64,000 nt of DNA from Candidatus Latescibacterota bacterium (GTDB lineage Bacteria > Latescibacterota > UBA2968 > UBA8231): assembly GCA_965208105.1 (NCBI GenBank), contig OZ242318.1, positions 1,984,001 to 2,048,000 of the forward strand, written 5' to 3'. Below are positions 32,201-63,812 of the stretch, one piece after another. The notes under the pieces are model-generated. The model was given only the letters and a program-made list of their open reading frames with translations. It did not search any database and was not told the DNA's origin. A program made the position numbers and the translations under genes. Numbering within the stretch: position 1 is the stretch's first letter; every line of letters starts with the position of its first letter.

Positions 32201-32285
32201 ACATAATGTTTTCACCGGGCCCGAACCGCGAAGCTGTTGCGCGAAGGCGCGTCAGCGCCGAAGCCCGGGCACGGTTGTGTTATAT
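32201..32285 (-). repeat. attC site (core TAAT)
   Basis: TAATGTTTTCACCGGGCCCG..two hairpins..CGGGCACGG TTGTGTTA. Confidence 0.8.
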
Positions 32286-32309
32286 GCCCTGCCTCCGTCG
32301 CACCGAGGA

Positions 32310-32912
32310 TCAATTGCTCTCCTCCAGTCGATGCAAGTGGTAGGCATTGTTGTATTGGACAAGGGTCCAGATTCCCTCAGACAGAGACCATTCGGTAATG
32401 CCTGTATTCAAAGGTTGCAGCCAGACCTTGGTCTCGGTTCCTGAAAAAAGCCTTTTCGTTGAGCCGGCGATGAATCCGCCATGAGTCACTGCTACTACTG
32501 TTTGTCCGGCGAATCGTTGCGAGTAGGACAACAAGGCCGAATGTGCTCTGTCAGACAGCTCCTGGAAGGTTTCGGCGCCCGGAGGCGTGGAATCTCCATA
32601 CTTTGCCTGGATCTGAGAGGTGGTGAGACCCTCGGCTTGTCCCATTCGCAGCTCACATAGATCTGGATCCTCCATTACGCATTGTGCCGGCAATACATCC
32701 AACAGAATCTTGGCGGTCTGACGCGCTCGCGCAATAGTGCTGCTGAGCAGTGTTTGACAATCGGAGAATTCGCCTGACTCTCGCAGATGTGTCGCAAGCG
32801 CATGAACTTGCTCCCTGCCCAGGTCTGTGAGGCCTGAGCACGTGCGCTCACCCGAGTTCGTCTCGGTAAGCTGGTCTTTGCCTTGTCCGTGCCGGACGAG
32901 TACTATCCGCAT
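32310..32912 (-). CDS. Histidine phosphatase family
   Basis: LVRHGQG, RARQTA, AVTHGG, NTGITE. Confidence 0.87.
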   Translation of the reverse strand: MRIVLVRHGQGKDQLTETNSGERTCSGLTDLGREQVHALATHLRESGEFSDCQTLLSSTIARARQTAKILLDVLPAQCVMEDPDLCELRMGQAEGLTTSQIQAKYGDSTPPGAETFQELSDRAHSALLSYSQRFAGQTVVAVTHGGFIAGSTKRLFSGTETKVWLQPLNTGITEWSLSEGIWTLVQYNNAYHLHRLEESN

Positions 32913-32945
32913 TGGATGCTAGCTTCACGAAGATTCTGGCATGAC

Positions 32946-33015
32946 ATATAACGTCTCCACGGTTGCCAACAGGCCAAGCCACCGAAGGCGGCGCGGCGGG
33001 AGCCGGTTGTTTGAG
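32946..33015 (-). repeat. attC site, short degenerate form
   Basis: TAACGTCTCCACGGTTGCC..GCCACCGAAGGCGGC..CCGGTTGTTT. Confidence 0.6.
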
Positions 33016-33026
33016 GAGGTGAAAAC

Positions 33027-33914
33027 CTACCAAACCCCCGTGGCGCGTTCCGGACTTGCGACGCCTTCAGGGAAAAACCTGTAGCCTCGTTCCCAGTTTT
33101 CCCGCTGGCGACTTCGTGCACCCCACTCCAGTTCCCTCATCGCTCGCCCAAACCAGAACCAACGGCCTCTTTGCTTCAAATCATCCGTGTTAAAGCAGTA
33201 GCTGGAGAGAACCCCGTCGATGAACCCCTCTCCAAGCTCCCATAGCCATCCGAAGTCGCATGCGGGGTCCCCAATGACCACATCCCCGAAGTCAATTACC
33301 CCGGCAAAGCGACCACCATCCACCAGAATGTGCGGCGGTTCGATATCGGCATGGATTACACTGCGTAAAATCTCGCTTGAGAGGTCTGCCGCCATGATCT
33401 CCCGGACCACTTTGTCACAGTACGACAATTCGTCAGGGGTCAGAGTGCCTTGTCTCACGATCCGTATGTAGTCGAACAAGAAACCTCTCACCTCGTCATA
33501 CCACGGATCGTCTTGAGGGATGCCTAAGGATTCGGCTTCCCCCAGGGGAAGGCCGTGGAGGGCATTGAGAACCGCTGCGACACCACCCGCGAGGCCGAGG
33601 CGTTGATCCTCTGCCAGGGAGATGAATTCTTCATACGTCAGGGAATGTCCGGGAATCGAAGGATATCCAGCGACGCGGTACTCGCCGTCAACGTGTGTAT
33701 AGTCGGGAACTGGCAATCCCGTCTCTCGAAGACGCCTAAGCAGCTTGACCTCTTGCTCAAGGGGTTCGTGCTCCGGATCTTCACAGGCAAATCGAAATAC
33801 GTACGAGTCGTCAAGGAGCACTACATCGTGATCGTAGTGCAGTAACTCAGCCTCCTCCCAATCGAGATCAGGCCACAGTCGCCGCAATTCACCTAGACGC
33901 TGTTCGAGTTCCAC
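33027..33914 (-). CDS. APH-family phosphotransferase
   Basis: IHADIEPPHIL, GVIDFGDVVIGDPACD. Confidence 0.85.
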   Translation of the reverse strand: MELEQRLGELRRLWPDLDWEEAELLHYDHDVVLLDDSYVFRFACEDPEHEPLEQEVKLLRRLRETGLPVPDYTHVDGEYRVAGYPSIPGHSLTYEEFISLAEDQRLGLAGGVAAVLNALHGLPLGEAESLGIPQDDPWYDEVRGFLFDYIRIVRQGTLTPDELSYCDKVVREIMAADLSSEILRSVIHADIEPPHILVDGGRFAGVIDFGDVVIGDPACDFGWLWELGEGFIDGVLSSYCFNTDDLKQRGRWFWFGRAMRELEWGARSRQRENWERGYRFFPEGVASPERATGVW

Positions 33915-33948
33915 GTGGATTTCTGTCCTTTGTCTACGCTTCCATGTC

Positions 33949-34034
33949 CTCTAACGTTATGCCGATATGCGAACCCGCGTCAGCGGGGTTGAGCGATGAC
34001 CGCCAGGCCAAAGCCGGGCACGGTCGTGTTGACC
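33949..34034 (-). repeat. attC site
   Basis: TAACGTTATGCCG..AACCCGC..GCGGGGTT..CGGGCACGGTCGTGTTG. Confidence 0.75.
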
Positions 34035-34069
34035 GATGGCGGCACCCTCAACATGTCTCCACAACCGTT

Positions 34070-35002: not shown

Positions 35003-35039
35003 CTCTGTCTCTCTGACGCGTATGCCGTTAGCCGCTTTC

Positions 35040-35114
35040 GCTTAACTTCTCAGTGCCCCCGAACCGGCGCGGCGGTTGGGCGAAGGGCCTGGAGGCTGGG
35101 GCACGGGATTAGGC
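35040..35114 (-). repeat. attC site
   Basis: TAAC..GTGCCCC..AACCG..CGGTT..GGGGCAC..ATTA; overlaps the stop codon of the adjacent gene. Confidence 0.72.
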
Positions 35115-36017
35115 GAGGTCGGCCCCCCTGGAATTTCCAGGACTCGCTATCCCACTTTTTCGTAAAAAGACCATCAGATCTTCACGCACCCCAACACTTC
35201 TTTGGACAGGGCTGTGTGATTCATCCGGATACATCCGAAATTCGGCTCCGGGAATCCTCATTGCAAGATCCCGGCCCCAATCCACGGGCACTTCTCTGTC
35301 TTTATCCCCGTGAACGACAAGTGTGGGAGCCCCTATCCGACCACATTCGACAATCACATCTCTACGAAGGTATGCGCCAATCGCTTGCAACTGGGTTCCA
35401 TACCATTGCACACGCTCTATCAAGCTGGACCTCTCCACAAGTTTCTGTATTCGTTCTTCGTATTCTCGCAAGGTTCCTCGCTCCTTCATCTCCTCGCGTT
35501 CCCACAGGATGTCTAGAGAAAGCTCAACACCCTTTGGTCGATTCTTCCAAGCTGCCGCCGCATCCTGTTTCTCAAGGATTTCGACCTGTTCTTTGACAAT
35601 TGCGGTAATCGGGTCTTCCTCGGGCCAAAGATTCGCAGCGGTACCAGCCAAAACGAGTGTATTGACTCTCTCCGGATAGATCGTTGCAAACAACACTGCA
35701 ACTGGACCCCCTGCAGAAGAACCAATCAGGTGCGCCCTTTCCACTTCAAGGTAGCCTAGCAGCTCAGACAAATCCCGCACCTGATTCTCAATATCATAGC
35801 CACCCTCCGGACGAGAAGACAGCCAGCAGCCCCGGCGATCGTAGATCACAAATCGGAAATCTGAAGTGAAATCCGTCTCCCATCCCCACATACCACTCGA
35901 TTGCGCACGGAGATGCATGTCAAGAGAGGGGAATCCTCCGTGTATAAACACGACGACCTCGCCCTCGCCTCGTGCATCGTAGAACATCCGGAAGCCGTTT
36001 ACAGACGCATATGGCAT
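35109..36017 (-). CDS. Alpha/beta hydrolase
   Basis: FIHGG, YDRRG, GSSAGG nucleophile elbow, HGDKD, H near the C-terminus. Confidence 0.87.
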   Translation of the reverse strand: MPYASVNGFRMFYDARGEGEVVVFIHGGFPSLDMHLRAQSSGMWGWETDFTSDFRFVIYDRRGCWLSSRPEGGYDIENQVRDLSELLGYLEVERAHLIGSSAGGPVAVLFATIYPERVNTLVLAGTAANLWPEEDPITAIVKEQVEILEKQDAAAAWKNRPKGVELSLDILWEREEMKERGTLREYEERIQKLVERSSLIERVQWYGTQLQAIGAYLRRDVIVECGRIGAPTLVVHGDKDREVPVDWGRDLAMRIPGAEFRMYPDESHSPVQRSVGVREDLMVFLRKSGIASPGNSRGADLA

Positions 36018-36697: not shown

Positions 36698-36711
36698 TCA
36701 AGCACAATTTC

Positions 36712-36838
36712 AGTTAAGGTTTTCCGCTTTGCGAACTAGGCGCGTCCCGAAGGGCTGGTGCGAGCTTTGCGAACCGAGAATCGGTTGCCACAGGCCCAAG
36801 GCGCCAAAGGCGCCGCAGCGCAAAACGTGCTGTTAAGT
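36712..36838 (-). repeat. attC site, long form with extra hairpins
   Basis: TAAG..TTTGCG..CCCGAAGGG..AACCGAGAATCGGTT..GGCGCCAAAGGCGCC..CGCAAAA..GTTA. Confidence 0.75.
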
Positions 36839-36882: not shown

Positions 36883-36968
36883 ACTTAACGTTTCAGTGCC
36901 CCCCAACCGGCGCGGCGGTTGGGCGAAGGGCCGAATTGCCCGGAGCAGGGAGCACGGACGTGTTACCT
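36883..36968 (-). repeat. attC site
   Basis: TAACGTTTCAGTGC..GCACGGACGTGTTA. Confidence 0.82.
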
Positions 36969-37842: not shown

Positions 37843-37933
37843 AGGTAAGGTTTCGCCGCTTTGCGAACCAGCGAAGCGGGTTGCCGAAGGCCAAGCCGCG
37901 ATCATCGTCCTTGCGCAAAACGCGCTGTTAGCC
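37843..37933 (-). repeat. attC site (core TAAG)
   Basis: TTTGCG AACCAGCGAAGCGGGTT..CGCAAAA CGCGCTGTTA. Confidence 0.78.
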
Positions 37934-39444: not shown

Positions 39445-39526
39445 CCATAACTTTCTCGCCGTGCCCCTTCCGCGAAGCGGTTGCGCGAAGGGCGATGTCC
39501 CGAAGCCTGGCACGAAGGTGTTACGC
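39445..39526 (-). repeat. attC site
   Basis: TAAC..CGTGCC..CCGCGAAGCGG..GGCACG..GTTA. Confidence 0.82.
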
Positions 39527-40522: not shown

Positions 40523-40616
40523 GGGTAACGTTCTCGCCACTTGCGAATCCGCGTAGCGGGTTGCCCTCAGGCCGAAGGGAGCGAATGCAACCGAAGCGCA
40601 AGTGGACGTGATATAG
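40523..40616 (-). repeat. attC site
   Basis: TAAC..CCACTTGCG..CGCAAGTGG ACGTGATA; stem sequence covaries relative to other sites. Confidence 0.8.
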
Positions 40617-41183: not shown

Positions 41184-41265
41184 CTATATCGCTTTCACCG
41201 TGCCCGAACCGCGTAGTGGTTGCGCGAAGGGCGTTAGCTCGAAGCCGGGCACGGACGTGTTAGAC
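41184..41265 (-). repeat. attC site (core TATC)
   Basis: CCGTGCCCG..CGGGCACGG ACGTGTTA. Confidence 0.82.
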
Positions 41266-41835: not shown

Positions 41836-41884
41836 AGGTTCAACTCAGGAAAGAACAATTACCAACACTCTGAAGCGGCATGAC

Positions 41885-41970
41885 GGCTAACTGCCTGTAT
41901 TCGAACCCACGAAGTGGGTTGCCGAGGGCCAAGGCGCGTAGCGCCGCAGCGCAACACCGTGCTGTCAGCC
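41885..41970 (-). repeat. attC site
   Basis: TAAC..AACCCACGAAGTGGGTT..GGCGCGTAGCGCC..GTCA. Confidence 0.78.
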
Positions 41971-42778: not shown

Positions 42779-42864
42779 GGCTAACGGCTGGCCATTCACG
42801 AAGCCGCGTAGCGGCTTTCAGCGAAGGGGCGTATGCCCCGAAGCCGTGAATGGGCTTGTTAGGT
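42779..42864 (-). repeat. attC site
   Basis: TAAC..CCATTCACG AAGCCGCGTAGCGGCTT..GGGGCGTATGCCCC..CGTGAATGG..GTTA. Confidence 0.85.
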
Positions 42865-50034: not shown

Positions 50035-50057
50035 GATGCCCTCCATCTGTGCATTAC

Positions 50058-52654: not shown

Positions 52655-52751
52655 GGCTAACGTTCCGCCGGTTTGCGAAGCCCGAGCTTGTCGAGGGGTT
52701 GCCGAAGGCCGGGCGCCAAAGGCGCCGCAGCGCAACACCGCGCTGTTACCT
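52655..52751 (-). repeat. attC site (near-identical to 61287-61383)
   Basis: TAACGTTCCGCCGGTTTGCGAAGCCCGAGCTTGTCGAGGGGTT..GCTGTTA. Confidence 0.88.
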
Positions 52752-53307: not shown

Positions 53308-53314
53308 CCATTTC

Positions 53315-53397
53315 AGGTAACGATATCGCCGTGCCCGAACCGCGAATGCGGTTGCGTAAAGGGCGTAACCCCGAAGCCGGGCACGGACGTGTTAGCC
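53315..53397 (-). repeat. attC site
   Basis: Consensus type. Confidence 0.9.
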
Positions 53398-54084
53398 GTT
53401 GGGCCCCGCTTTAGAGGACAACCATTGAGCCAGAATCTCGGCGACACTGCTCATTGCCATCTGAAGATTTGTCTTGAAATCATCAGGTGCGGATTCGTCG
53501 GCATCGTCCGTGACTCCTCTCATCTCAAGGTACGGGACTTCGCTGAACCTGCACGCGCGCGCCCCGCCGGCGCCCTCCCAGGCGACAACCAGAGCTTGAG
53601 TCCGCTCACGAACCTGCACTCTCCGACTGGGTTCGACGATGTCCTCATCACCGCTTGCGATTACACCGAAGTGGACTTCGTGGCCCTCCACAGCCGCCGG
53701 CATCCCACGCAAACTCTGGAGCGCTGTCGGATCACCCTCGAATGAGGGCACCGGACTGTCGTTGAACCTGTTGATGTAATCGTGCTCAACCGTTCGGGTG
53801 CCGACCACCACATCCCCGACGCGCAGTCCATCCGCCAGCCCCCCAGCGGCACCTGTGCAAATCACGAGGTCCCAACCTGATCCCGCATCCAGAAGATGCT
53901 GCAGCTGAACTCCGAACTGAGCCTTGCCTGTGCCACCCACCGCAAGAGTGAGTCCGAGGTCGGGGAACTGGGTGACAGGCAGCCGCCCTATGGTCTTAGC
54001 TCGTTGATCATGCCCGGCCGCCACGAGATCGTCGCGAATGGCTTCCAGCTCTTCTAGCATTGGTGCTACAGCGGCCACTTGCAT
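53392..54084 (-). CDS. MTA/SAH nucleosidase-like (PNP/UDP family)
   Basis: APMLEE, GGTGK, TGAAGGL..GDVVV, ASGD, WEGAG, RGVTD. Confidence 0.85.
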   Translation of the reverse strand: MQVAAVAPMLEELEAIRDDLVAAGHDQRAKTIGRLPVTQFPDLGLTLAVGGTGKAQFGVQLQHLLDAGSGWDLVICTGAAGGLADGLRVGDVVVGTRTVEHDYINRFNDSPVPSFEGDPTALQSLRGMPAAVEGHEVHFGVIASGDEDIVEPSRRVQVRERTQALVVAWEGAGGARACRFSEVPYLEMRGVTDDADESAPDDFKTNLQMAMSSVAEILAQWLSSKAGPNG

Positions 54085-54133
54085 CTAATTCACATCCCAA
54101 GTGTCCCTTTGTGCTTCCCTTAGGGGGCCTTAC

Positions 54134-54215
54134 GGCTAAAGTTTTCGTGCCCCCGAGCCGCGCTGGGGTTGGGCGAAAGGCCGAATGGCCTGAAGCCGGG
54201 GGCAGGGTGTTATAG
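54134..54215 (-). repeat. attC site (core TAAA); part of the duplicated cassette
   Basis: Matches 62003-62084. Confidence 0.85.
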
Positions 54216-54250
54216 GCCGTGACAGCCTGCAAACAATCAATTAGGAGCGG

Positions 54251-55051
54251 CTATAGCACCTGTATTTTCGATGCAAATCTCTGAAATCGATCAAGTGTTA
54301 TATTCGCCCAACCGACAACAGTCTCAGAGGGTTGCTCAGTTTGCAATTCATTTAGCGCAGAGACTTCGAAATATGAACCATAGATAGCGCCGCAGATATA
54401 ATAATCGCGCACGGGATCTGTAGACTCAACCGAAAGCCTACCCATGTAGGATTCGATCAGCGATTCTATGTTCAAAAGTTTTGGATACGGCGTAACTTGC
54501 GCTCCGGTCCGGAGGACCAGATCGGCAAACGGAGAACTCAACCAGGATAGGCCCAAGTCGAACGCGACGATCTTCTTGCCTAACATGCCTAGATTGGAAT
54601 TGGCCGGATCACCATGCGAGACGCAGGTGCACCGGCTTGCAACCATTTTCTGAAACTCACGGAATATGTACGAGGCAGAGGGTAAGGCACCGAAGTCACT
54701 GCGATAAAGCCGCGAATTAGGGTCCCCCGCTTCGGCAACGAGCTGCGACATGACCGTCCAGTATGATGAAAAGTAGCCAAGATTGCACGGCGGATACTCT
54801 ACCACGCTAACAGAATTGAACTCCACGACCCAATGGAGAACGCGTTCGAAACCAGCTATTTCGGACGTGTCAAACGGCAAGGGCGCGGCCTTTTCCAGGA
54901 CTATCTTCCGCCTACAGCCGTCTTCAATCACGTCAAGCAACTGCACAACGGGCGCACCCGCATCGTTGAGGGCTTTATACTTCTCGACCTCTGAAAACCC
55001 GGGTCTCTCTGGCTTGATCACGTAGGTGCCACAGTCTTGAACCTGAGACAT
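54251..55051 (-). CDS. APH/choline-kinase-like phosphotransferase (copy 1)
   Basis: YVIKP, SHGDPANSN, AFDLG. Confidence 0.72.
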   Translation of the reverse strand: MSQVQDCGTYVIKPERPGFSEVEKYKALNDAGAPVVQLLDVIEDGCRRKIVLEKAAPLPFDTSEIAGFERVLHWVVEFNSVSVVEYPPCNLGYFSSYWTVMSQLVAEAGDPNSRLYRSDFGALPSASYIFREFQKMVASRCTCVSHGDPANSNLGMLGKKIVAFDLGLSWLSSPFADLVLRTGAQVTPYPKLLNIESLIESYMGRLSVESTDPVRDYYICGAIYGSYFEVSALNELQTEQPSETVVGWANITLDRFQRFASKIQVL

Positions 55052-55087
55052 TTGATCGGCTTAGTACACAGCGTCATCTGGTATGGC

Positions 55088-55169
55088 CTATAACGTTTCC
55101 GTGCCCCCGAACCGCGCAGCGGTTGGGCGAAGGGTCGAACGGCCCGGAGCCGGGGGCACGGTGTTATAG
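55088..55169 (-). repeat. attC site
   Basis: CCGTGCCCCCG..CGGGGGCACGG TGTTA. Confidence 0.9.
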
Positions 55170-55215
55170 GATGTGCCAGCCGAGCTTGGAGTACACACGG
55201 CTCTGAGTTCCACCA

Positions 55216-56181
55216 TCACGCTTCAACCGCTTCCGCGATAAAATGGGTGTATGCGTCGCGGTAATCAGGCTGCCATTCTGTCAGATCTGATCCCCATTGA
55301 CGAGCAGCCATCCAACCAAGAGCAATCTTCCCTGCAGTAACCAAGTCGGGCCCTTCAAGGCTTCTAAGTCCTGCCTCGCTGCGCTTGACGGCCATTCTGT
55401 GAATGAGATCTCGATGCCCCGGCCGACCGCTCTCGCCCGAATTGAGAACCTGAAGATAAGCTGGATCCAGAATCCAGGACTGACGCTTTGGGTGAATATC
55501 AATTAGAACCACACGCTCTCCATCCGGAGGCGGATCTCTCACCAAGCCGTTGCAGAGGTGGAAGTCATCGAAGCAAATGTCAGATCCGCACTTCTCTAGG
55601 AGAAAGCGCCAATGGAGGTCGACTTTTTGTAGAAGTTTATCAACGGATCCCGGAGGGTTCCGGTCAATCGATCCCTGAAGCCAACGGGAAACTTCCATCG
55701 GAGTTGTCTCATTCAAACTGGGGTCTTGTATTTTTTCTGCCTGTTGGTAGAAGCGAATTCCCGCGTCAAGCAGCAATTCGAACTCCCTGCCGTTCCAGGC
55801 ACTCCCCAAAGGTCCAAATGGAATGGCTTCCAAAGCGAGCCAATGCACATCAATTCTTCCCAGCCGAGATCCTGAAGCGTAGACCTTGGGCACTAGGTCA
55901 GGTGCAAAGCGATTGAGTTCATTACACCAGAAATTTTCTCGTGTACTGGTACCAACTTTGATAATCACTACGAGGCCTGTCTTTCGATGTAGACCTCGGA
56001 GATGAACAGCGACCATTCCATACTCTTGAAGGAAAGGCTGGATATCGCTAGCGATCGCAGTGATTGCTTCTGTTTGGTTGGCGGCTTTGAGAATCTCACC
56101 CAAGACCGCGCCTGATCGGGATACCCGGCCGTCGCCTTCAAAGATTTTCACGTCTGCACTCCTCTTGGATCTGGCTGGCAT
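55216..56181 (-). CDS. Kinase-like (APH-fold) protein
   Basis: VIIKVG, VPKVY, WLALE, DDFHLCNGL, VLID; true start may be GTG 56151. Confidence 0.62.
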   Translation of the reverse strand: MPARSKRSADVKIFEGDGRVSRSGAVLGEILKAANQTEAITAIASDIQPFLQEYGMVAVHLRGLHRKTGLVVIIKVGTSTRENFWCNELNRFAPDLVPKVYASGSRLGRIDVHWLALEAIPFGPLGSAWNGREFELLLDAGIRFYQQAEKIQDPSLNETTPMEVSRWLQGSIDRNPPGSVDKLLQKVDLHWRFLLEKCGSDICFDDFHLCNGLVRDPPPDGERVVLIDIHPKRQSWILDPAYLQVLNSGESGRPGHRDLIHRMAVKRSEAGLRSLEGPDLVTAGKIALGWMAARQWGSDLTEWQPDYRDAYTHFIAEAVEA

Positions 56182-56184
56182 TTC

Positions 56185-56275
56185 CTATAACGTTACGCCG
56201 ATTGCCGAACCTGCGAAGCAGGTTGCCAGATGCCAAGGCGCGACGAGCGCCGCAGGGGAAAACGAGTTGTTATGC
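56185..56275 (-). repeat. attC site
   Basis: TAAC..AACCTGCGAAGCAGGTT..GGCGCGACGAGCGCC..GTTA. Confidence 0.85.
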
Positions 56276-56287
56276 GATCGGCACTCG

Positions 56288-57373
56288 TCAAGAAGATCGA
56301 AATGGTCCTCCATATCTGACCAAAACGTGCCACAAGTATTTCAGGAGTCCGCGCACTTTCCGAGGATCACCCCAGTTGCTCCACTCAGAAGGATTTCTCC
56401 CCAGGTCCATTGCCGCAGATCCAATCACTCTTGGATCCACGCGGCCATCAATGGCCACGTGTGTGGCAAATGGCGGCATCACGGGACCCCTGAAATCGCT
56501 TGGCACCTCATCAGCTGGCAACGTGAAACCCATGTGCCAGAAACAATCGATGGAATACTCGGAACACACTTCCTCGAGAACTTCGCCGATATGTGTATTC
56601 TTGAAAGAAGGATCAACAACCATTATGTCGGCATCGGTGCGCAGACAAACGTCACCGTGAACCTGTGCCTCGATGTAGTGATTCAAATTGCGGTTGGCCT
56701 CTCGTCCAGATGGATCCTTGAAAGGTTGCTCAAGTTCAGTGAATAGATGCTCGACAAGCCTCCCAGTAGTCAGGTTCCGTTCACCTATCGCAAAATCGCT
56801 GAAGAACGCGTCTTTCATCATGGCGGCAAGTATGCCGTCGAAAGCCTTGTACGTACCATTGGAGCCCGAGTGCGATGAATCCAAGTACGTAAACGTCGTC
56901 CGAGTTGAGACCTCCGGTTTTAAGAGCAGAAAGCAGCATCCAAACCGAGGTGAAGGTCCGTCAGGATGCAACATTAGATCGAGCGCCCCGTACTTGGGCC
57001 GTTCCTCGTCGGAGGTTTCGTTATTGTGATACGCACCACCGAAGAGCCTATCTTCCCACCTGTCGCGCTCACCACCGGAATAAGCAGTTTCGCCACCGCT
57101 CGACATTTTGGTCACGAACTGGTTTCGATAGATTCCCTGTTCTAGCAACGCCTGGGCTACTGGTTTCAGGTCTGGATCTGGTCTGTCCGGATGGAAGTGC
57201 AACCCGACTCGGGCGTGAGACTTGAGCTTGGCGACAGTCTGGTCGAATCGTTCCGGGGCAATATCCGATTGGTAAAGGATGTCGGACAGCCATTTCAGCG
57301 CCCAGTCTCTTTGCTCTCGCCCACAGTGGGTGAAATGATCTAGAGCGGCTAATTGCGATTTTGTCAGATTCAT
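56288..57373 (-). CDS. DUF3626-like protein
   Basis: LHFHPDR, YRNQF, RPKYGALD, GPSPRFG, YIEAQVHG. Confidence 0.78.
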   Translation of the reverse strand: MNLTKSQLAALDHFTHCGREQRDWALKWLSDILYQSDIAPERFDQTVAKLKSHARVGLHFHPDRPDPDLKPVAQALLEQGIYRNQFVTKMSSGGETAYSGGERDRWEDRLFGGAYHNNETSDEERPKYGALDLMLHPDGPSPRFGCCFLLLKPEVSTRTTFTYLDSSHSGSNGTYKAFDGILAAMMKDAFFSDFAIGERNLTTGRLVEHLFTELEQPFKDPSGREANRNLNHYIEAQVHGDVCLRTDADIMVVDPSFKNTHIGEVLEEVCSEYSIDCFWHMGFTLPADEVPSDFRGPVMPPFATHVAIDGRVDPRVIGSAAMDLGRNPSEWSNWGDPRKVRGLLKYLWHVLVRYGGPFRSS

Positions 57374-57413
57374 AGAACAATCGGTGCGGGCACTATTCAG
57401 ACTTGAACTTACC

Positions 57414-58573
57414 TAGTGCTCTGTTAAGGATTCAGGCTTGTACTTTTTCGTACATGTTGGTATCATGGGGACATATGTCCATTTTTCTGGGAGGGTCCTG
57501 CCATGTGCCTCCATGCTCGAACACCGGATGCTGCCGAATCGAAAGAACTGGGCCGATGGCTGAAGCGGCCACGCAATGCCGTACAGATGCGACGAGGGCA
57601 ATTGATCTCCCTCAGTGCCCAGGGTATGCGGGTCCAGGAGCTGTCGGCGACGCTGCATCTGCACGAGGAATACATCCGCTCCCTGGTCCGACGATACAAC
57701 GAGGAAGGGCTGGCGTCGCTTCGCACGCGAGCCCACCCGGGGCGCACCCCAGCGCTGACGCCCGAAGACGAGTCCGTGGTGGTGGAGATCGCCAAGATGC
57801 CCCCTCGGGCTTTCGGCCAACCCTTCAACCAGTGGTCGCTGCGCAAGCTGACCGACTGTCTGGTCGGGCGCAAGATGATCCCCAAGGTCTCGCACGTGAC
57901 CATCGCCAAGGTCTTGGACCGGCATAAGGTCACCTACCAACGTACCCGCACCTGGAAGGAGTCGAAGGATCCGGATTTCTCCTCGAAAAAAAACGCATCG
58001 ACCGCCTCTACCGGCGTGCGCCGAAGGACTCGGTCGTAGTCTGCTTCGACGAAATGGGGCCCGTGCAGATCAAGCCCCATGCCGGCTCCTCCTGGGCGCC
58101 GCAGAAGCACCCGGTGCGGCACCGAGCCACCTACACCCGGCACGCCGGGGTCAGCTATTTCTTCGGCGCCTACAACGTCCACGAGGACGTCCTGTGGATG
58201 CATCACAAGCGAAAGAAGCACGCCTCGGAGGTGCTCACTTTCCTCAAGGCCATCCGGCACCGCTACCGCAAGGCCCAACGCATCTACCTCGTTCTGGACA
58301 ATTTGTCGACGCACGCGACCCCAAAGATTCGGCAATGGTGTCGGCAGCATCGAGTCTCCCTCGTCTTCACCGCTACCAACGCCTCCTGGATGAACCGTCT
58401 CGAATGCCATCTGACCGCCGCCCACTACTTCGTCATCAAGAACAGCGACCCAAGGGACCATCGAGACATCGGCCAGCGCATGCAGGAATACCTCGTATGG
58501 AGAAATCGAAACCAGGACGATGCCAAGCTCGCCAAAATACAAAATTCAATGCCCACTCTTTAACAGCGCACTA
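57414..58573 (+). mobile_element. IS630-family insertion sequence
   Basis: IRs TAGTGCTCTGTTAAGGA / revcomp TAGTGCGCTGTTAAAGA; TA duplication within CTAG; two overlapping ORFs. Confidence 0.92.
57503..58563 (+). CDS. IS630 transposase (ORFA HTH + ORFB DDE, joined by a probable -1 frameshift at A8, 57986-57993)
   Basis: WSLRKL HTH; frameshifted KKRIDRLY..VCFDEMGP..LDNLSTH..SWMNRLE. Confidence 0.88.
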
Positions 58574-58583
58574 GTGCCCGTTC

Positions 58584-58665
58584 GCATAACGTTTCCGCCG
58601 TGCCCGAACCGCGCAAGCGGTTGCGCGAAGGGCGTAGCCCGAAGCCGGGCACGGACGTGTTATCT
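58584..58665 (-). repeat. attC site
   Basis: Consensus type. Confidence 0.9.
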
Positions 58666-58711
58666 GACGTGCGATTCACTGCGTAGTCCACCAGGAACTT
58701 CGAGCGTGCGT

Positions 58712-59542
58712 CTATTTGGTGACCACCCAGTAGGTGTCGGTCTCGTTTTGAGATCCTATGTACGGTCCACAGTCGTGGCTCCCGTAGAGCTCCCAACGCT
58801 CAAATCCAGCTAGGCGCAGCGGCAACTGGAACTCTGCCGGATAGATCCATCGTGCCTGCATCGGTACTTTCGACGTTTCCCCACTGTGCCTGAAGGTCCA
58901 CGTATAGCTTTCTCTTTGAGATGCAAGATCGCAGCTCTTGGCGTAGCTAACCTCGATCTCTTTACCTGTCTCGGGATGAATGAATACACCGAATTCCTCC
59001 TCAGGAGGAGTGGAATCCAGGTGGAGGAGCAAGTCGCCGGTGTAAGAAGGAACGTAGAAATTCAACAACAAGCGTCCTCCAGGATGCAGACAATTGTAGA
59101 CTCTGCTCAGGCACGCGATTTGGATCGCCCGCGTCGATAGCATCATGATGGAACTGGCAGGGATCAGCACTGTTCTAAACCGGTTATCGTAGGTGAAGTC
59201 CCCGAGGTCCTGATGGGAAATTCGCGTGGCGATGTCCGCGATGCCCAGATCGATTCCTTTACCTATGAGCACGTCCAACATGGGCAAAGAAGAATCAAAC
59301 CCGAAAACATCAAATCCGTCCGCGAGCAGAGGCAGCATGATCGAGCCCGTTCCGCAAGCCGCCTCCAAAGTAGCACCTTGCGTGTCATGCAGCTGACCTC
59401 GGTAAAACGCCAATTCGTGTTGACGCTGTGCCGATCTTCCACCGCTCTCACTCCACTGGTCGTAGATCAGCGACCACCACAGGCTGTTATAGCCAATTTC
59501 GTTCTCCTGCAAGGCGGTTCCGATATTCGGTCGATCTAGCAT
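58712..59542 (-). CDS. Class I SAM methyltransferase
   Basis: LEAACGTG, FDSSLPML, LHPGGRLL. Confidence 0.85.
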   Translation of the reverse strand: MLDRPNIGTALQENEIGYNSLWWSLIYDQWSESGGRSAQRQHELAFYRGQLHDTQGATLEAACGTGSIMLPLLADGFDVFGFDSSLPMLDVLIGKGIDLGIADIATRISHQDLGDFTYDNRFRTVLIPASSIMMLSTRAIQIACLSRVYNCLHPGGRLLLNFYVPSYTGDLLLHLDSTPPEEEFGVFIHPETGKEIEVSYAKSCDLASQRESYTWTFRHSGETSKVPMQARWIYPAEFQLPLRLAGFERWELYGSHDCGPYIGSQNETDTYWVVTK

Positions 59543-59550
59543 CGCATGTC

Positions 59551-59636
59551 AGATAACGTTCTCGCCGTTGCCCGAACCGCGAATGCGGTTGCGCGAAGGC
59601 GCCTCAGCGCCGAAGCCGGGCACGGACGTGTTACCT
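59551..59636 (-). repeat. attC site
   Basis: Consensus type. Confidence 0.9.
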
Positions 59637-59681
59637 GCCGTGGCCATCCTGCGCGGATGAAAATTCCTCGTAGCACCCGAT

Positions 59682-60479
59682 TCACACCTCTGGCTTAAAG
59701 CCTACGGCGCGACACCACGCAAAGGCCGCATAGGCATCGGGAGATACCGACCACTCCTCCCAGGCTTCGGTTATTGCTTTCAACTCGTCATCTGTTGCAA
59801 GTGCGTGTTCTTGCGCGTTCTGAACAAAGGCTCCGTCCTGGAAGTAGTGCACTTGTCTGGTCCCAAACGTCTTCACTTTGTCCTCAGTTCCATAGCAGAG
59901 ATACTTGGAAGTGACAGTCACATCTTTAAAACTCGCGCCATTCAATAGACCGCGAAGTTCGCGGCCGCAATATGGACCGCCTGTGCCTTTGAGAGTCCAG
60001 AGCTGCTCTCGAATTGAATAGCTGCGTCGAAGTAAGGACGAACGTGGTCCGCCGACGATGAAACCACCGTATTCCACGTCCGCGATTCCTAATACCCCAC
60101 CGGGTTTGAGGACGCGCTTCACCTCCAGGAGTGCGTCTTGTGGGCGATCCAGGGTCTCGACCACCGAGTGGCAGAGGCAGGCATCGAAGCTATTGTCTGC
60201 GAAATCGAGTCCGTAGACATCACCGACGCAAAAGTCAACGTTTCCAATCGCGTGGACGCGAGCATACGTTTCAGCATCTCCGAAACCATCATCACTATGA
60301 TCAACACCGACTACGCTACGCACCTTCTCGGCCACACCCAAAGCAATGCTTCCGCCACCGCATCCTACGTCCAGGACTTTGAACTCTGGTGCCAAGTGTG
60401 GAAACAGGAACTCGGCATAATCGTCCGCGTTCCGGCCGGCCATGTAGTCTTCAAAGCTCATGCCAGAGGTGTCTTCCAA
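59682..60479 (-). CDS. UbiE-like SAM methyltransferase
   Basis: VLDVGCGGG, FADNSFD, RVLKPGG. Confidence 0.87.
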   Translation of the reverse strand: MEDTSGMSFEDYMAGRNADDYAEFLFPHLAPEFKVLDVGCGGGSIALGVAEKVRSVVGVDHSDDGFGDAETYARVHAIGNVDFCVGDVYGLDFADNSFDACLCHSVVETLDRPQDALLEVKRVLKPGGVLGIADVEYGGFIVGGPRSSLLRRSYSIREQLWTLKGTGGPYCGRELRGLLNGASFKDVTVTSKYLCYGTEDKVKTFGTRQVHYFQDGAFVQNAQEHALATDDELKAITEAWEEWSVSPDAYAAFAWCRAVGFKPEV

Positions 60480-60495
60480 TGCGGAAAGCCATGGC

Positions 60496-60587
60496 AGGTA
60501 ACGCTTTCCGGTTGCCGAACTCGCGAAGCGAGTTGCCGGAGGCCCAGACGCCCAGAGGGCGGCGCAGCGGCAAACGTGTTGTTACAT
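60496..60587 (-). repeat. attC site
   Basis: TAAC..TTGCCG AACTCGCGAAGCGAGTT..CGGCAA..GTTA. Confidence 0.88.
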
Positions 60588-60661
60588 GAAGTGCAATCGT
60601 GGAGTGTGGCCAGGACGGCCACCTCCATTCCCCTGAGTTGCGAGGCCTGTGGCTGCAACAC

Positions 60662-60922
60662 TCAGGCCGCAGCAGTCTGCCTCACTTCCCATCCTGGAAA
60701 CACCAGAACTGCCGGATGGCACTGCAGTGCTTGAGCCAAAACTTTCGCACGTTCTACTCCCAGCTGCACCCGATCGTTCTCAATGGCAGAAATAGTGGAT
60801 TGAGGAATCCCAGTTCGGCGTGACAGCTCGTTCTGGCTCAATTCCTGCAGCTCTCTGACTATCCGTACTGACTCACCCACGGACACTTCAATCCGCTTCC
60901 TGGCTGGACGGTAGTTCTTCAT
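60662..60922 (-). CDS. XRE-HTH antitoxin (HigA-like)
   Basis: RELQELSQNELSRRTGIPQSTISAIE. Confidence 0.85.
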   Translation of the reverse strand: MKNYRPARKRIEVSVGESVRIVRELQELSQNELSRRTGIPQSTISAIENDRVQLGVERAKVLAQALQCHPAVLVFPGWEVRQTAAA

Positions 60923-60923
60923 T

Positions 60924-61205
60924 TCACTTTCTCCGATAATCGTGGACTGTAATATCCACTACCTTCACAAGGATCTCGCTTGCAACAACCTCATAAATGA
61001 CTCGAAAATGAAGACCAAGCCTCGATGATCTGTGGCCCTTCCATTCGCCCCGCAGGGCTTCGTCGTGAAACCCCTTGATGAGCCTCAGGCCAGCGGGGCC
61101 GGACACCGCAACGATGTCCTTCCACTTCTCGTAGCGTTTGAGAACCTCGTCAGGCATGGTTCGGAGTCTTTTCTCGACTCTCCGATGCTCAAGGAGGGTC
61201 CACAT
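60924..61205 (-). CDS. RelE/HigB/YafQ-family toxin
   Basis: GFHDEALRGEWKGHRSSRL..FRVIY..HDY; toxin-first order. Confidence 0.85.
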   Translation of the reverse strand: MWTLLEHRRVEKRLRTMPDEVLKRYEKWKDIVAVSGPAGLRLIKGFHDEALRGEWKGHRSSRLGLHFRVIYEVVASEILVKVVDITVHDYRRK

Positions 61206-61212
61206 ACCAGGT

Positions 61213-61240
61213 AAGATATATACTCATTTAGATATGTCAA
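61213..61240 (-). promoter_or_regulatory. Putative promoter of the TA cassette
   Basis: TTGACA-16 bp-TATCTT, 7 nt before the ATG. Confidence 0.55.
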
Positions 61241-61286
61241 CATGGGATCGGTTCATGGGCGGCCATGGATGGCCGACCTACATTTC

Positions 61287-61383
61287 ATGTAACGTTCCGC
61301 CGGTTTGCGAAGCCCGAGCTTGTCGAGGGGTTGCCGAAGGCCGGGCGCCAAAGGCGGCGCAGCGCAACACCGCGCTGTTATAC
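61287..61383 (-). repeat. attC site (near-identical to 52655-52751)
   Basis: One internal substitution relative to 52655. Confidence 0.88.
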
Positions 61384-61968
61384 GACGGCGTGATCATCCC
61401 CGCCCTCGACGCTCCAGCATGTCTCGACCACACCGAAGTCAGGCCGAGACAGGACGATCCAAGATGGCAGCCCCAACTGTTTCCACAAAGCAAACGGTTC
61501 CAGCGCTGAAATGCGGCTCACGAAAAGGCTCAGCACCGTCCCGTGAGTTATGAGAGCCAAATTCGCCTGTGGAAATCGGTCTGATAGTTCATACACGGCC
61601 TTCGAAAATCTGTTGTACGCTGTATCCGCCGTCTCCTCGCCGAAAATAAATTCAGTTGGTCGAGAGAAAAAACGACCGATCGACTCCTCAAAGCGCTCCT
61701 TTTCCAGGAAGCCAACGTTGCATCGTTCATGTTCTTGCAACCCATCAACGACTTCTACCGGCGTTTTCAGAAAGCGCGCTGAGATTTCAGCTGTTTCTAC
61801 GGCTTTAGGTTCGGTGCTACTGACAATCACATCGAGATCATATTGGACCAATTTCTCAGCGAGTATCTGAGAACGGACGCGGCCTTCCCGCGACAGATGC
61901 CATTCATTGGCTGGGACCGTAGAATCGATCTCCGGTAGCGAATGCTTCACCAAAACGATCATCTGCAT
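61378..61968 (-). CDS. Histidine phosphatase-like protein (KHS instead of RHG)
   Basis: LVKHS, SSTEPKAVETA, ITHGT; stop lies inside the attC core. Confidence 0.8.
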   Translation of the reverse strand: MQMIVLVKHSLPEIDSTVPANEWHLSREGRVRSQILAEKLVQYDLDVIVSSTEPKAVETAEISARFLKTPVEVVDGLQEHERCNVGFLEKERFEESIGRFFSRPTEFIFGEETADTAYNRFSKAVYELSDRFPQANLALITHGTVLSLFVSRISALEPFALWKQLGLPSWIVLSRPDFGVVETCWSVEGGDDHAVV

Positions 61969-62002
61969 CTTCTCGGTTCTTCTTCTCGTCTAATCTGCTG
62001 TC

Positions 62003-62084
62003 GTATAACGTTTTCGTGCCTCCGAGCCGCGCTGCGGTTGGGCGAAAGACCGAATGGCCTGAAGCCGGGGGCACGGTGTTATAG
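62003..62084 (-). repeat. attC site; part of the duplicated cassette
   Basis: Matches 54134-54215. Confidence 0.88.
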
Positions 62085-62119
62085 GCCGTGACAGCCTGCA
62101 AGCAATCAATTAGGAGCGG

Positions 62120-62920
62120 CTATACCACCTGTATTTTCGATGCAAATCTCTGAAATCGATCAAGTGTTATATTCGCCCAACCGACAACAGTCTCAGAGGG
62201 TTGCTCAGTTTGCAATTCATTTAGCGCAGAGACTTCGAAATATGAACCATAGATAGCGCCACAGATATAATAATCGCGCACGGGATCTGTAGACTCAACC
62301 GAAAGCCTACCCATGTAGGATTCGATCAGCGATTCTATGTTCAAAAGTTTTGGATACGGCGTAACTTGCGCTCCGGTCCGGAGGACCAGATCGGCAAACG
62401 GAGAACTCAACCAGGATAGGCCCAAGTCGAACGCGACGATCTTCTTGCCTAACATGCCTAGATTGGAATTGGCCGGATCACCATGCGAGACGCAGGTGCA
62501 CCGGCTTGCAACCATTTTCTGAAACTCGCGGAATATGTACGAGGCAGAGGGTAAGGCACCGAAGTCACTGCGATAAAGCCGCGAATTAGGGTCCCCCGCT
62601 TCGGCAACGAGCTGCGACATGACCGTCCAGTATGATGAAAAGTAGCCAAGATTGCACGGCGGATACTCTACCACGCTAACAGAATTGAACTCCACGACCC
62701 AATGGAGAACGCGTTCGAAACCAGCTATTTCGGACGTGTCAAACGGCAAGGGCGCGGCCTTTTCCAGGACTATCTTCCGCCTACAGCCGTCTTCAATCAC
62801 GTCAAGCAACTGCACAACAGGCGCACCCGCATCGTTGAGGGCTTTATACTTCTCGACCTCTGAAAACCCGGGTCTCTCTGGCTTGATCACGTAGGTGCCG
62901 CAGTCTTCAACTTGAGACAT
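62120..62920 (-). CDS. APH-like phosphotransferase (copy 2)
   Basis: Differs from 54251..55051 at 2 residues (position 5 Q/E, last residue L/V). Confidence 0.72.
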   Translation of the reverse strand: MSQVEDCGTYVIKPERPGFSEVEKYKALNDAGAPVVQLLDVIEDGCRRKIVLEKAAPLPFDTSEIAGFERVLHWVVEFNSVSVVEYPPCNLGYFSSYWTVMSQLVAEAGDPNSRLYRSDFGALPSASYIFREFQKMVASRCTCVSHGDPANSNLGMLGKKIVAFDLGLSWLSSPFADLVLRTGAQVTPYPKLLNIESLIESYMGRLSVESTDPVRDYYICGAIYGSYFEVSALNELQTEQPSETVVGWANITLDRFQRFASKIQVV

Positions 62921-62956
62921 TTGATCGGCTTAGTACACAGCGTCATCTGGCATGGC

Positions 62957-63039
62957 CTATAACGTTTCAGTGCCCCCGAACCGCGAAGCGGTTGGGCGAA
63001 GGGCCGAATGGCCCGTAGCCGGGCACGGACGTGTTATAG
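62957..63039 (-). repeat. attC site
   Basis: TAAC..GTGCCC..AACCGCGAAGCGGTT..GGGCCGAATGGCCC..GGGCAC..GTTA. Confidence 0.9.
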
Positions 63040-63073
63040 GAAGTGCCAAACCTCTTGCCTTGGCACAGCAATC

Positions 63074-63739
63074 TCAATTCCTCGCACATCCTCGCCAGAC
63101 GGCTTTGAAAGGCTCGCCTGTGATTCTATCGGGTACGAATAGGTGCTCGATCTGAAGATGCGTCCACTCTTGAAAGTGACCTTCAAGCTCGGATTGGGAG
63201 AAGAAGTGAACTGTTTGGCCACCCGCTTCAAGCACCCGGTTTGGCCCTAGCTTCTTGGATACGCGCCTTCGGCGTGCTCGAAGCTCAAGGTCATCAACTG
63301 AGTTCACGTGAAAGATGAAAATCCCTGAGGGGCGCAGAATGCGCCTTACCTCCTGAATGACGGTCATCGTCGTCATGTCGTCGAACATGTGAAGCGCCAC
63401 GTTGGAAAAAACGGCATCGAAGCACTGTTTGGGAAAGGGAAGCCCTCTGGCCATATCAGCCCTCACAAAATCGGCCCCGGGGATCCGCTTTGAACGGGCG
63501 ATGTCTAGGGCCTTTTCAGAAAAATCCAGGCCCACGGCTTGGAGGCCTAACGTTGCAAGACGACGTACGTCGTTCCCAGTCCCACATCCCAGATCCAGAA
63601 CCTTTCTGCATCTACACGCGGCCAGAGTGCCCAAAAAAGGATCTATCCAGAGCCCGCCCCAATTCAGATCACCTTCGCGTTCGAAGCGGTCATTCCAAAC
63701 CGCGGAATCCCCGTAGAAAGTATCATCGCTTGGGGTCAA
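63074..63739 (-). CDS. Class I SAM methyltransferase
   Basis: VLDLGCGTG, FDAVFSNVALH, ILRPSG. Confidence 0.87.
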   Translation of the reverse strand: MTPSDDTFYGDSAVWNDRFEREGDLNWGGLWIDPFLGTLAACRCRKVLDLGCGTGNDVRRLATLGLQAVGLDFSEKALDIARSKRIPGADFVRADMARGLPFPKQCFDAVFSNVALHMFDDMTTMTVIQEVRRILRPSGIFIFHVNSVDDLELRARRRRVSKKLGPNRVLEAGGQTVHFFSQSELEGHFQEWTHLQIEHLFVPDRITGEPFKAVWRGCARN

Positions 63740-63749
63740 TTGGCATTTC

Positions 63750-63812
63750 CTATAACGTTATGCCGGTTGCCGAAGGCGCGAATGCGCCGCAGCGGTAACC
63801 GTGCTGTTAGCC
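63750..63812 (-). repeat. attC site, minimal 63-bp form
   Basis: TAAC..CGGTTGCCG AA GGCGCGAATGCGCC GCAG CGGTAACCG..GTTA. Confidence 0.87.

Follow-up and report, generated by a model that had tools for sequence, protein, structure and literature searches.

In practice, integrons are recognised by two features, the IntI-specific domain of the integrase and attC recombination sites with extrahelical bases, and, according to the accessible parts of the survey literature, this definition leaves them nearly absent from Firmicutes and several other phyla. The sections of PMC5027507 and PMC2727003 used here describe a canonical attC site as having an R box in which G follows AAC, 5-6 nt of central spacer per arm, and two to three extrahelical bases on the R''-L'' arm (G16, sometimes 20, and T23/24, with 6 bp from the first to the last). 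The variable terminal structure is called 'complex branched' in chromosomal sites such as the Vibrio cholerae repeats (VCRs), and three unpaired features are presented in the same sections as common to all known attC sites. Here we describe an integron-type cassette array that enters from within a window of 64,000 nt, the whole stretch of DNA analysed (positions 1984001-2048000 of contig OZ242318.1 in the genome of a Candidatus Latescibacterota bacterium, assembly GCA_965208105.1; G000:C1:1984001-2048000, where G000 is the source genome). Its hairpin sites probably represent a distinct class of attC, served by IntI-like tyrosine recombinases that lack the IntI-specific insertion.

Recombinases of this general kind have been noticed before. 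In the part of Cury et al. 2016 available for comparison, 21 recombinases without the intI_Cterm domain were found near attC sites; four of them fell between IntI and Xer and had fewer than three attC sites apiece, and they were judged not to be IntI. The IntegronFinder 2.0 paper, as far as its accessible text goes, counts a single complete integron and a handful of attC-site clusters that have no integron integrase (CALINs) in Firmicutes.

From 32204 to the end of the window, each gap between minus-strand open reading frames (ORFs) contains an imperfect palindrome, TAAC...GTTA on the plus strand. The array, with its minus-strand ORFs, runs from 32204 through the window end to window-equivalent position 77050 (genome 2061050), approximately 45 kb; window-equivalent coordinates continue the numbering of the window past its end. 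The series of sites runs to window-equivalent 76597 and is followed, beyond the window, by an attI-like junction and then by the recombinase gene. By-eye reading together with a covariance model gave 47 sites (57-152 nt long) that delimit 47 cassettes; 33 of the sites are within the window. Of the 47 cassettes, 46 carry their longest ORF on the minus strand, followed by the hairpin site. The cassettes have a median length of 896 nt, and a median of 38 nt separates stop codon and site. The GC fraction is 0.51-0.57 in the array, compared with 0.58-0.69 left of 26 kb. The region is a sedentary integron-type gene-cassette array. An initial annotation of the window, made from the sequence alone, had placed such sites between 32201 and 63812; they are present there, from 32204-32282 through 63753-63809, and far from what chance would give.

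Read along the plus strand, a site starts with the R box (RYYTAAC-G / T-GTTARRY), followed by a 4-nt, pyrimidine-rich 5' loop, 2 bp, a 9-bp helix and a variable tip. The 3' arm returns through the second strand of the 9-bp helix, usually one bulged base, 2 bp, a T and GTTA, giving a helix of about 11 bp in total that is usually broken by one unpaired 3'-arm base. In folds computed with DNA parameters, a pair forms between the G that follows AAC and the T that precedes GTTA. The order given in the initial annotation (TAAC, 7 nt, a 9-bp stem, hairpins, the stem again, 4 nt, GTTA) describes the commonest type well, except that its two spacers partly pair: the final two bases of the longer spacer form base pairs with the second and third bases of the shorter one (CG/CG, GC/GC, TA/TG), which leaves a one-sided 4-nt loop. 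The five stems quoted there were recovered with exact complements: CCGTGCCCG at 44673, CCACTTGCG at 40526, CCATTCACG at 42782, GTGGCTCACG at 43678 and CGGTTGCCG at 46341 and 63753.

A simple spacer rule was applied to the 39 sites known at that stage, 27 of them in the window. The 5' spacer exceeded the 3' spacer by 3 nt in 26 sites, by 2 nt in three and by 4 nt in two; the rule failed in the other eight, which have imperfect stems. The tip, often with GAA-type loops, contains two hairpins in 21 sites, three in 15, one in two and four in a single site, and the inner region spans 20-117 nt. There are 28 distinct 5'-stem strings among these sites, and reading them gave at least ten clearly different stems. 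In 30 of the 39, folding favours the bottom (plus) strand over the top strand. One-, two- and three-hairpin variants had been proposed at 63750, 44670, 50812 and 36712. The first three fold as described (plus-strand z = -3.0, -4.0 and -3.4, respectively), and all four elements (R box, 4-nt 5' loop, stem and single 3' bulge) appear in each minimum-free-energy (MFE) structure. The fourth, folded as 36709-36838, is a composite site (z = -0.6) and does not take the form proposed for it.

A covariance model built from ten sites with the proposed structure was searched against 389,050 bases in 19 sources at E ≤ 1. It returned 99 matches, 36 in the window and 35 of these on the plus strand, and it added six degenerate sites overlooked by eye as well as one at 26549-26634. 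In the 99-site alignment, 93.4% of 2274 cells are paired, all 26 modelled pairs change on both sides, none of 500 shuffles reached the observed pairing, and controls with slid partners were 25-53% paired. The covariation of the stem noted in the initial annotation is borne out. The layout of a 4-nt loop, 2 bp and one bulged base occurs in 64 of the 99 sites, and the 4-nt loop without the bulge in 13. The most frequent loops are TTCT (15), TTTT (13) and TTCC (10). As the initial annotation had noted for the spacers, the arms are asymmetric, the 5' arm being longer than the 3' arm by 2-4 nt in 86 of 99 sites. At the TAAC/GTTA pairs, 87-89 of 98 distinct rows show the most frequent combination, and 85 have G.U after AAC. 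An earlier MAFFT alignment of 29 sites with RNAalifold gave only four pairs, with misaligned arms, and was replaced by the model-based alignment. At gathering thresholds, Rfam had no match in the window; attC is not an Rfam family.

The computed folds had been named beforehand as the check on whether standard extrahelical bases would appear, and no such bases were found. The absence of an L-box bulge is accordingly correct as far as standard, paired extrahelical bases are concerned. It does not extend to every unpaired base: most sites have one bulged base at about position 11. A single unpaired 3'-arm base is present in 79 of 99 sites and absent from 19; it has no preferred identity (A 28, T 25, G 14, C 12), and an extra 3'-arm base falls within the 9-bp helix in only eight. 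Branching of the tip, by contrast, had been taken for a non-canonical trait, and here the annotation does not stand, since branched variable terminal structures are already described for chromosomal attC sites in the sections of PMC5027507 and PMC2727003 used. The apparent novelty lies in the site class and its linkage to the recombinase.

Three cassette duplications within the array locate the crossover: 53308-54139 equals 66053-66884, 54137-55178 equals 62006-63048, and 59542-60529 equals 71695-72679; the identities are 99.5%, 97.6% and 95.7%. At the readable boundaries, homology extends from the TAAC of a cassette's own site to the ...TAA of the next site, so that the joint is TAA|C on the plus strand. 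The right end of the 54137-55178/62006-63048 pair is unreadable because similar sites follow both copies. The same point is reached by comparison with the congener G001. At the array end, the DNA common to both genomes is confined to 77047-78254 (92% identity over 1208 nt) and starts exactly at the TAAC of 77047-77050, to the left of which the two genomes have unrelated cassettes. The shared platform thus consists exactly of the recombinase and the attI-like junction, whose TAA|C lies approximately 210 bp upstream of the recombinase gene. Together, the duplication ends and the G001 comparison place the crossover at TAA|C in the 5' arm, as judged from sequence, and therefore identify integron-type cassettes with the plus strand as the bottom strand. 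The better folding of this strand agrees with the bias reported for attC sites by Nivina et al. in the cited part of PMC5027507. The opposite assignment, with the plus strand as top strand, was ruled out by the crossover side, the ORF orientation and a comparison with the canonical array of G019. Since different cassettes abut a shared platform in G000 and G001, the junction qualifies as a putative attI, for which insertion activity is predicted.

The junction itself resembles the 5' arm of the type B sites listed below. Within the array, the site at 41881-41967 has a 5' arm identical to the junction in 20 of 21 nt (CTAACTGCCTGTAT.CGAACC), followed by a type B site. The attI may derive from a half-site, or 41881-41967 may be a relic of another platform.

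These boundaries also bear on whether the palindromes could be an intergenic repeat family, similar to repetitive extragenic palindromes or miniature inverted-repeat transposable elements, that spread by other means and stands beside cassettes and recombinase by coincidence. Hairpin repeats are common in bacterial genomes, and model matches are indeed scattered through G000, G001 and their relatives. Such a family would, however, have to account for one site per ORF, always on one strand: a whole-genome pattern scan placed 19 of 72 plus-strand matches, but none of 49 minus-strand matches, inside the 45-kb array. It would also have to account for whole cassettes duplicated with their ends at TAA|C and for complete cassette replacement between congeners beside a conserved junction. 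We regard this explanation as highly improbable.

The tyrosine-recombinase gene is located on the plus strand at approximately 77253-78190 window-equivalent (genome approximately 2061253-2062190). In G000 it contains an in-frame TAA at about codon 58, where G001 has GAA; the G001 copy is an intact ORF of 312 residues. The nonsense codon could be a real inactivation or a sequencing error. It suggests that the G000 array is no longer reshuffled by its own enzyme and may now be static. The best-scoring profile was TIGR02249 (integron integrase) with 210.8 bits, below its cut-off of 265; NF011946 gave 151.5 bits against a cut-off of 435. For homologues, the domains PF13495 and PF00589 are recorded. 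The catalytic residues R147, K172, H237, R240, H263 and Y272 are invariant in an alignment of 25 proteins, and all are present in the intact G001 copy.

The recombinase also lacks a segment. Positions 180-234 of TIGR02249 are unmatched in it. By sequence and by predicted fold, the best solved relative is VchIntIA (2a3v), ahead of archaeal Xer proteins, and its residues 179-238 stand opposite only 18 residues of the recombinase. The stretch from GKGxKDR to HxLRHSF measures 73 residues in 15 of 15 short-type proteins, 113-114 in seven of seven canonical IntI of relatives and 79-83 in three Xer-like proteins of G000. An AlphaFold model (mean pLDDT 82.9) has no extra helix at the position of the IntI insertion. 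Work attributed to MacDonald et al. reportedly describes, at residue level in VchIntIA, how the insertion region contacts the extrahelical bases. In the part of their paper that we cite, Cury et al. used the region of the missing segment as the IntI signature. Identity is 34-40% to the canonical IntI of relatives and 25-29% to the Xer-like proteins of the host. In a tree of the 25 proteins, short-type proteins and IntI stand apart from Xer (support 92/89), with IntI as one clade (100/100). These comparisons place the recombinase, on its sequence, nearer to integron integrases than to Xer, without the approximately 40-residue IntI-specific insertion. When it was compared by tblastn with 72,556 plasmids, no match exceeded 47% identity; those obtained were rhizobial recombinases and, presumably, class 1 IntI on enterobacterial plasmids, and gave no lead to a mobile form.

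Among 41 relatives, eight encode a canonical IntI and 12 a short-type recombinase; in G008 and G021 the two occur together. Close orthologues (84-92% identity) in G010, G014 and G016 have window-type sites beside the gene, which is divergent from the cassettes as in G000. More distant homologues (50-55%) in G008, G030 and G040 are likewise accompanied by window-type sites, with the gene co-directional with the cassettes. The covariance model found 8-52 matches in ten of the 12 short-type genomes and no more than five in any of the other 29. One site beside the intact G001 recombinase (L108:17745-17832) has symmetric arms, both with the long spacer, and is almost perfectly palindromic. Either strand is matched by the model (73.4 and 20.5 bits), and there is no arm asymmetry by which to separate the two.

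The distribution among relatives is informative for an alternative explanation: an ordinary CALIN, in which normal attC sites belong to a canonical IntI that was lost or acts in trans and the short recombinase is an unrelated Xer-like or mobile-element gene. CALINs are common and mostly without a nearby intI pseudogene (PMC4889954, in the portion consulted for this point), and satellite site clusters without a recombinase exist here as well. By the cited part of PMC2727003, the sites are canonical in their R box with the G after AAC, in their variable branched tip and in TAA|C, as are the cassettes in their layout, and canonical IntI does occur in the eight relatives mentioned. However, the short recombinase is found at the same array end in G000, G001, G010, G014, G016, G008, G040 and G030 and in distant phyla, and the platform shared by G000 and G001 is the recombinase plus attI, starting at TAAC. 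Profile searches of the G000 genome did not find a canonical IntI. The five relatives with canonical IntI only have no model matches. Arrays that adjoin canonical IntI within the same bacterial family, in G019 and G008, differ in site anatomy when folded by the same method: they have two single-base 3'-arm bulges, 6 bp apart in G019, and none of their sites matches the model of the window.

Homologues from outside the relatives point in the same direction. We collected 80 loci of homologues with 47-64% identity from Dehalococcoidia, Bacillota, Nitrospirota, Atribacterota, Bacteroidota and others and scanned them with a strict pattern in which TAAC and GTTA enclose a stem of 9 bp or more. The protein family as a whole has at least 7981 members at E ≤ 1e-20. 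The scan gave 50 strict sites, compared with four in shuffled sequence; 47 of them lie in 334 kb downstream of the gene and three in 582 kb upstream. The arm difference was -4 in 22 sites and -3 in 11. Similar arrays occur at the same gene end in Dehalococcoidia, Desulfitobacterium, Paenibacillus, Nitrospirae, Atribacteria and others; the Desulfitobacterium locus comprises 12 consecutive one-ORF cassettes with a site after each. Dehalococcoidia sites have a two-hairpin tip with GAA-type flanks, as in the window. The distant sites fold with the 4-nt loop and uninterrupted stems of 11-15 bp, mostly without a bulge. Four of five distant array-bearing genomes have no canonical IntI. With the one-sided position of the sites relative to the gene, this makes the explanation as an ordinary CALIN unlikely in our view.

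A further alternative is recombination of double-stranded DNA at the RYYTAAC-GTT end and its adjoining arm, in the manner of Xer/dif or pdif, with the hairpins serving transcription termination or mRNA stability. The enzyme has an Xer-like architecture and lacks the insertion that is thought necessary for folded substrates (PMC9024848, in the text available), the AACGTT at the crossover end is palindromic, and a median distance of 38 nt past stop codons is a terminator-like position. Yet a matching GTTA is retained at the far end, and the arms covary over 11 bp without sequence conservation, which argues for a folded substrate rather than a double-stranded core. The left half-site would have to come from the neighbouring cassette, where only YTAA is conserved. 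A terminator role would leave the TAA|C boundaries and the fixed arm asymmetry of 3-4 nt across phyla unexplained, and by eye there is no run of T after the hairpins in the mRNA sense. We consider this alternative quite unlikely.

Our preferred reading therefore remains a distinct attC class served by insertion-less IntI-like recombinases, and several observations weigh against it. The cognate status of the enzyme would rest on adjacency and on co-occurrence among genomes that are related and thus not independent, and the recombinase gene of G000 itself is a pseudogene with a TAA stop. Most sites keep one bulged base on the canonical arm, so that a canonical IntI might tolerate them, and deletion of the extrahelical bases leaves some attC sites recombining, according to the section of PMC5027507 at hand. 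The 99-site alignment was fitted to its own proposed structure and many sites are close kin; its pair counts overstate the independent support, and for these reasons the number of distinct stem strings is the more honest measure. In the tree, the short family is an unresolved comb, in which IntI as a sister group is not distinguishable from IntI nested within it. Among the distant loci, 36 include 2 kb or more downstream of the gene, and a strict site was found in only 14 of these; several, such as the Chlorobiaceae, some Paenibacillus and the Saccharicrinis loci, gave none, so the family is not uniformly linked to arrays. G008, G021 and a Nitrospirae metagenome-assembled genome also carry canonical IntI, which makes action in trans possible. 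Finally, G000 has site clusters far from any recombinase (1041319-1046051 and 2742126-2750705, with further sites at 4490175 and 288584), near which no TIGR02249 or NF011946 match was found, and the recombinase-free clusters of G001 are larger, e.g. at 218-279 kb.

Of the proposal in the initial annotation that the sites form a distinct attC class read by different rules, the first part is supported by these results; the different rules, which we infer, are plausible. Based on the site anatomy and the recombinase comparison, we propose the following mechanism. The insertion-less recombinase family would be the cognate enzyme of the sites, and, judging from the crossover side and the covariation, a site would be recombined as a folded bottom strand. 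One monomer would bind the R box and cleave AA|C, while a second would bind the approximately 11-bp helix. The 4-nt pyrimidine loop would create a central region of 6 nt on the cleaved strand opposite only 2 nt, so that the hairpin is kinked one way. Strand choice would then depend on the loop, which shares an arm with AAC in the bottom strand but is on the opposite arm in the top strand, and not on extrahelical bases. The loop may also hold the second monomer inactive, a role that Bouvier et al., in the passage known to us, proposed for the central spacer. The single bulge of the lineage in the window may be an accessory feature.

A wider reading can be put forward only tentatively. In it, insertion-less recombinases and their arrays would form a second, widespread and possibly ancestral integron lineage in which strand choice is made by a 4-nt bulge on the cleaved arm, and canonical IntI would have arisen within or beside it by gaining the I2 insertion and the reading of extrahelical bases. 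Such a lineage would span, with the same reserve, Chloroflexi-like sponge symbionts, Bacillota, Nitrospirota, Atribacterota and others, among them phyla reported to be almost free of integrons.

The 33 sites of the window are all on the plus strand; bit scores in the following are those of the covariance model (R1). The reference example of type A is 44673-44749 (94.8 bits, fold z = -4.0), whose stem CCGTGCCCG also occurs in others. Further type A sites are 45801-45877 (86.9 bits), 49533-49609 (90.0 bits), 58587-58662 (95.9 bits) and 53318-53394 (92.1 bits), the last belonging to the cassette duplicated at window-equivalent 66053-66884. Deviations within this type are a degenerate R box TAAT in the first site of the array, 32204-32282 (69.6 bits), a decayed stem at 39448-39523 (56.5 bits), the R box TATC at 41187-41262 (81.2 bits), the R box TTAC with a longer 5' loop at 50054-50134 (77.3 bits) and an extra T in the 5' stem at 59554-59633 (83.7 bits), whose cassette is duplicated at window-equivalent 71695-72679.

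Type B is represented by 48315-48396 (40.6 bits) and 60499-60584 (30.7 bits), by two sites with three hairpins at 52658-52748 (27.6 bits) and 61290-61380 (25.9 bits), and by two with one hairpin and the stem CGGTTGCCG, 46341-46404 (23.5 bits) and 63753-63809 (39.7 bits, fold z = -3.0). The latter is the shortest site, with 57 nt, and the last in the window. The R box is AAAC at 51799-51882 (30.8 bits) and TAAG in the degenerate site 37846-37930 (26.5 bits), and the stem is decayed at 56188-56272 (28.7 bits). The type C sites are 47470-47545, with a decayed 3' arm (54.5 bits), 54137-54212, with the R box TAAA (51.5 bits), 55091-55166, with an uninterrupted 11-bp stem and no bulge (76.1 bits), and 62006-62081 (62.3 bits), whose cassette duplicates 54137-55090. 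A degenerate type C-like site at 35043-35111 was assigned from its score (26.4 bits) and its fold.

Several sites combine arms of different types. At 33952-34031 a type B 5' arm is joined to a type A 3' arm that ends in GTTG (35.5 bits), and 36886-36965 (45.9 bits) and 62960-63036 (66.9 bits) are C/A hybrids. The site 41881-41967, with its attI-like 5' arm on a type B interior and 3' arm, scores 21.1 bits. The remaining sites are 40526-40613, with the stem CCACTTGCG and a 3' R box mutated to GATA (48.0 bits), 42782-42861, with the stem CCATTCACG and two hairpins (72.2 bits), 43678-43750, with the 10-bp stem GTGGCTCACG, the R box AAAC and no 3' bulge (32.9 bits), the three-hairpin site 50815-50890, with the stem CTACCCG (36.0 bits, fold z = -3.4), and the composite site 36712-36835, with a duplicated 5' arm and the R box TTAAG/GTTAA, where the model matches partially (20.0 bits) and the MFE structure does not close. 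In this site and in the composite at window-equivalent 75588-75684, either an arm is duplicated internally or the 3' arm is followed by a further one of a different type. These composites look like products of illegitimate or homologous exchange between sites.

The cassettes encode, among others, methyltransferases, phosphotransferases, histidine phosphatases and an ankyrin-repeat protein. S-adenosylmethionine-dependent methyltransferase cassettes are located at 58712-59542, 59682-60479 and 63074-63739, an alpha/beta hydrolase gene at 35109-36017 and a DUF3626 gene at 56288-57373. The cassette ORFs 55216-56181 (321 residues) and 62120-62920 (266 residues) had no Pfam match at E ≤ 0.001. The cassette between the sites 56188 and 58587 is interrupted by an IS630-like insertion at 57413-58570 on the plus strand, whose two ORFs encode HTH_32 and DDE_3 domains. 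In contigs of two public sequencing runs, 57412 is joined straight to 58571. The element is outside the recombination system proper.

Left of 32200, and hence of the range covered by the initial annotation, there is a degenerate plus-strand site at 26549-26634 (R1 26.4 bits, E = 3.7e-5) and a weak partial model match at 27289-27344. Minus-strand, cassette-like accessory genes between 25680 and 32200 encode an APH-family protein, a histidine phosphatase, an aldo-keto reductase, an ankyrin-repeat protein, a kinase and an LD-carboxypeptidase; the first two kinds of gene appear again at 32310-33914. The array probably once reached to about 25.7 kb, and 25.7-32.2 kb would be an older, decayed stretch.

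Sponge and marine metagenome runs contain 28-58% of the sampled words of 53000-62999, which indicates that subsets of these cassettes are present in other samples. When the same interval was compared with contigs from four runs of four studies at 90% likeness, 13 of the 15 joints listed had both ends in or at sites, and the contigs continued into unlike sequence for 24-63% of the aligned length. These joints may reflect cassette reshuffling between populations and are equally compatible with assembly chimeras at repeated sites; we did not count them as evidence.

For the source organism, the array is a 45-kb store of accessory genes, the sequence of which also occurs in the sponge and marine runs. 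If our preferred reading is correct, cassette platforms are more widely spread than surveys report, and many 'CALINs' may adjoin an unrecognised integrase. The origin of integrons from Xer-like recombinases would become directly testable on a living intermediate. The sites would embody a second, independent solution to strand choice on folded DNA, and the structure-specific recombination system would be usable as a new tool.

Several described systems are close enough for a direct comparison. Like the CALINs of Cury et al. 2016, the source genome contains no protein with the IntI-specific region, and recombinase-free satellite clusters exist; IntegronFinder would probably class the array as a CALIN if its attC model recognises the sites. 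Unlike in a CALIN, the main array is bordered by an attI-like junction and a conserved IntI-like recombinase, in this genome as in many others. The 'integron-like' simple tyrosine recombinases of Smyshlyaev, Bateman and Barabas 2021, together with the intermediates of Cury et al., are IntI relatives between IntI and Xer in which the insertion is 'not fully conserved'. The accessible text of these sources assigns no cassette arrays or function to the insertion-less members, whereas a single array comprises 47 sites here. In the full-text literature, with subscription journals outside coverage, we found no description that links insertion-less IntI-like recombinases to cassette arrays, nor one of this site class.

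XerCD acting on the folded single-stranded DNA of the CTX phage offers a parallel, in that an insertion-less enzyme of Xer architecture may use a hairpin with an unpaired centre; the section of PMC5027507 drawn on here states that Xer is able to recombine single-stranded substrates. The arrangement differs from Xer/pdif modules in its hairpins of 57-152 nt with an integron R box, its one-way array and its dedicated recombinase at the end; no 28-bp dif-like core was noticed, though no search for one was made.

The classical integrons, e.g. the V. cholerae superintegron with its VCRs and the class 1 integrons, provide the closest comparison. The locus shares with them a terminal tyrosine recombinase with an attI-like junction, promoterless one-ORF cassettes that each end in an imperfect palindrome, the R box RYYYAAC/GTTRRRY with G after AAC, and crossover at AA|C on the bottom strand. 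Variable or branched tips, GAA-type loops, better folding of the bottom strand and site types shared within a taxon are common to both as well. In contrast to classical IntI, the recombinase lacks the IntI-specific insertion and scores below the TIGR02249 cut-off, and in most of the distant members of its family the gene is co-directional with the cassettes. The sites differ from classical attC in that their L'' arm lacks two extrahelical bases spaced 6 bp from each other. Their single bulge, where present, may be any base and is at about position 11 by our own count from the outer R'' end, approximately 5 nt nearer to the R box. Instead of a spacer of 5-6 nt on both arms, they have a 4-nt loop on the cleaved arm only, so that the 5' arm is the longer one and the asymmetry of the classical site is reversed.

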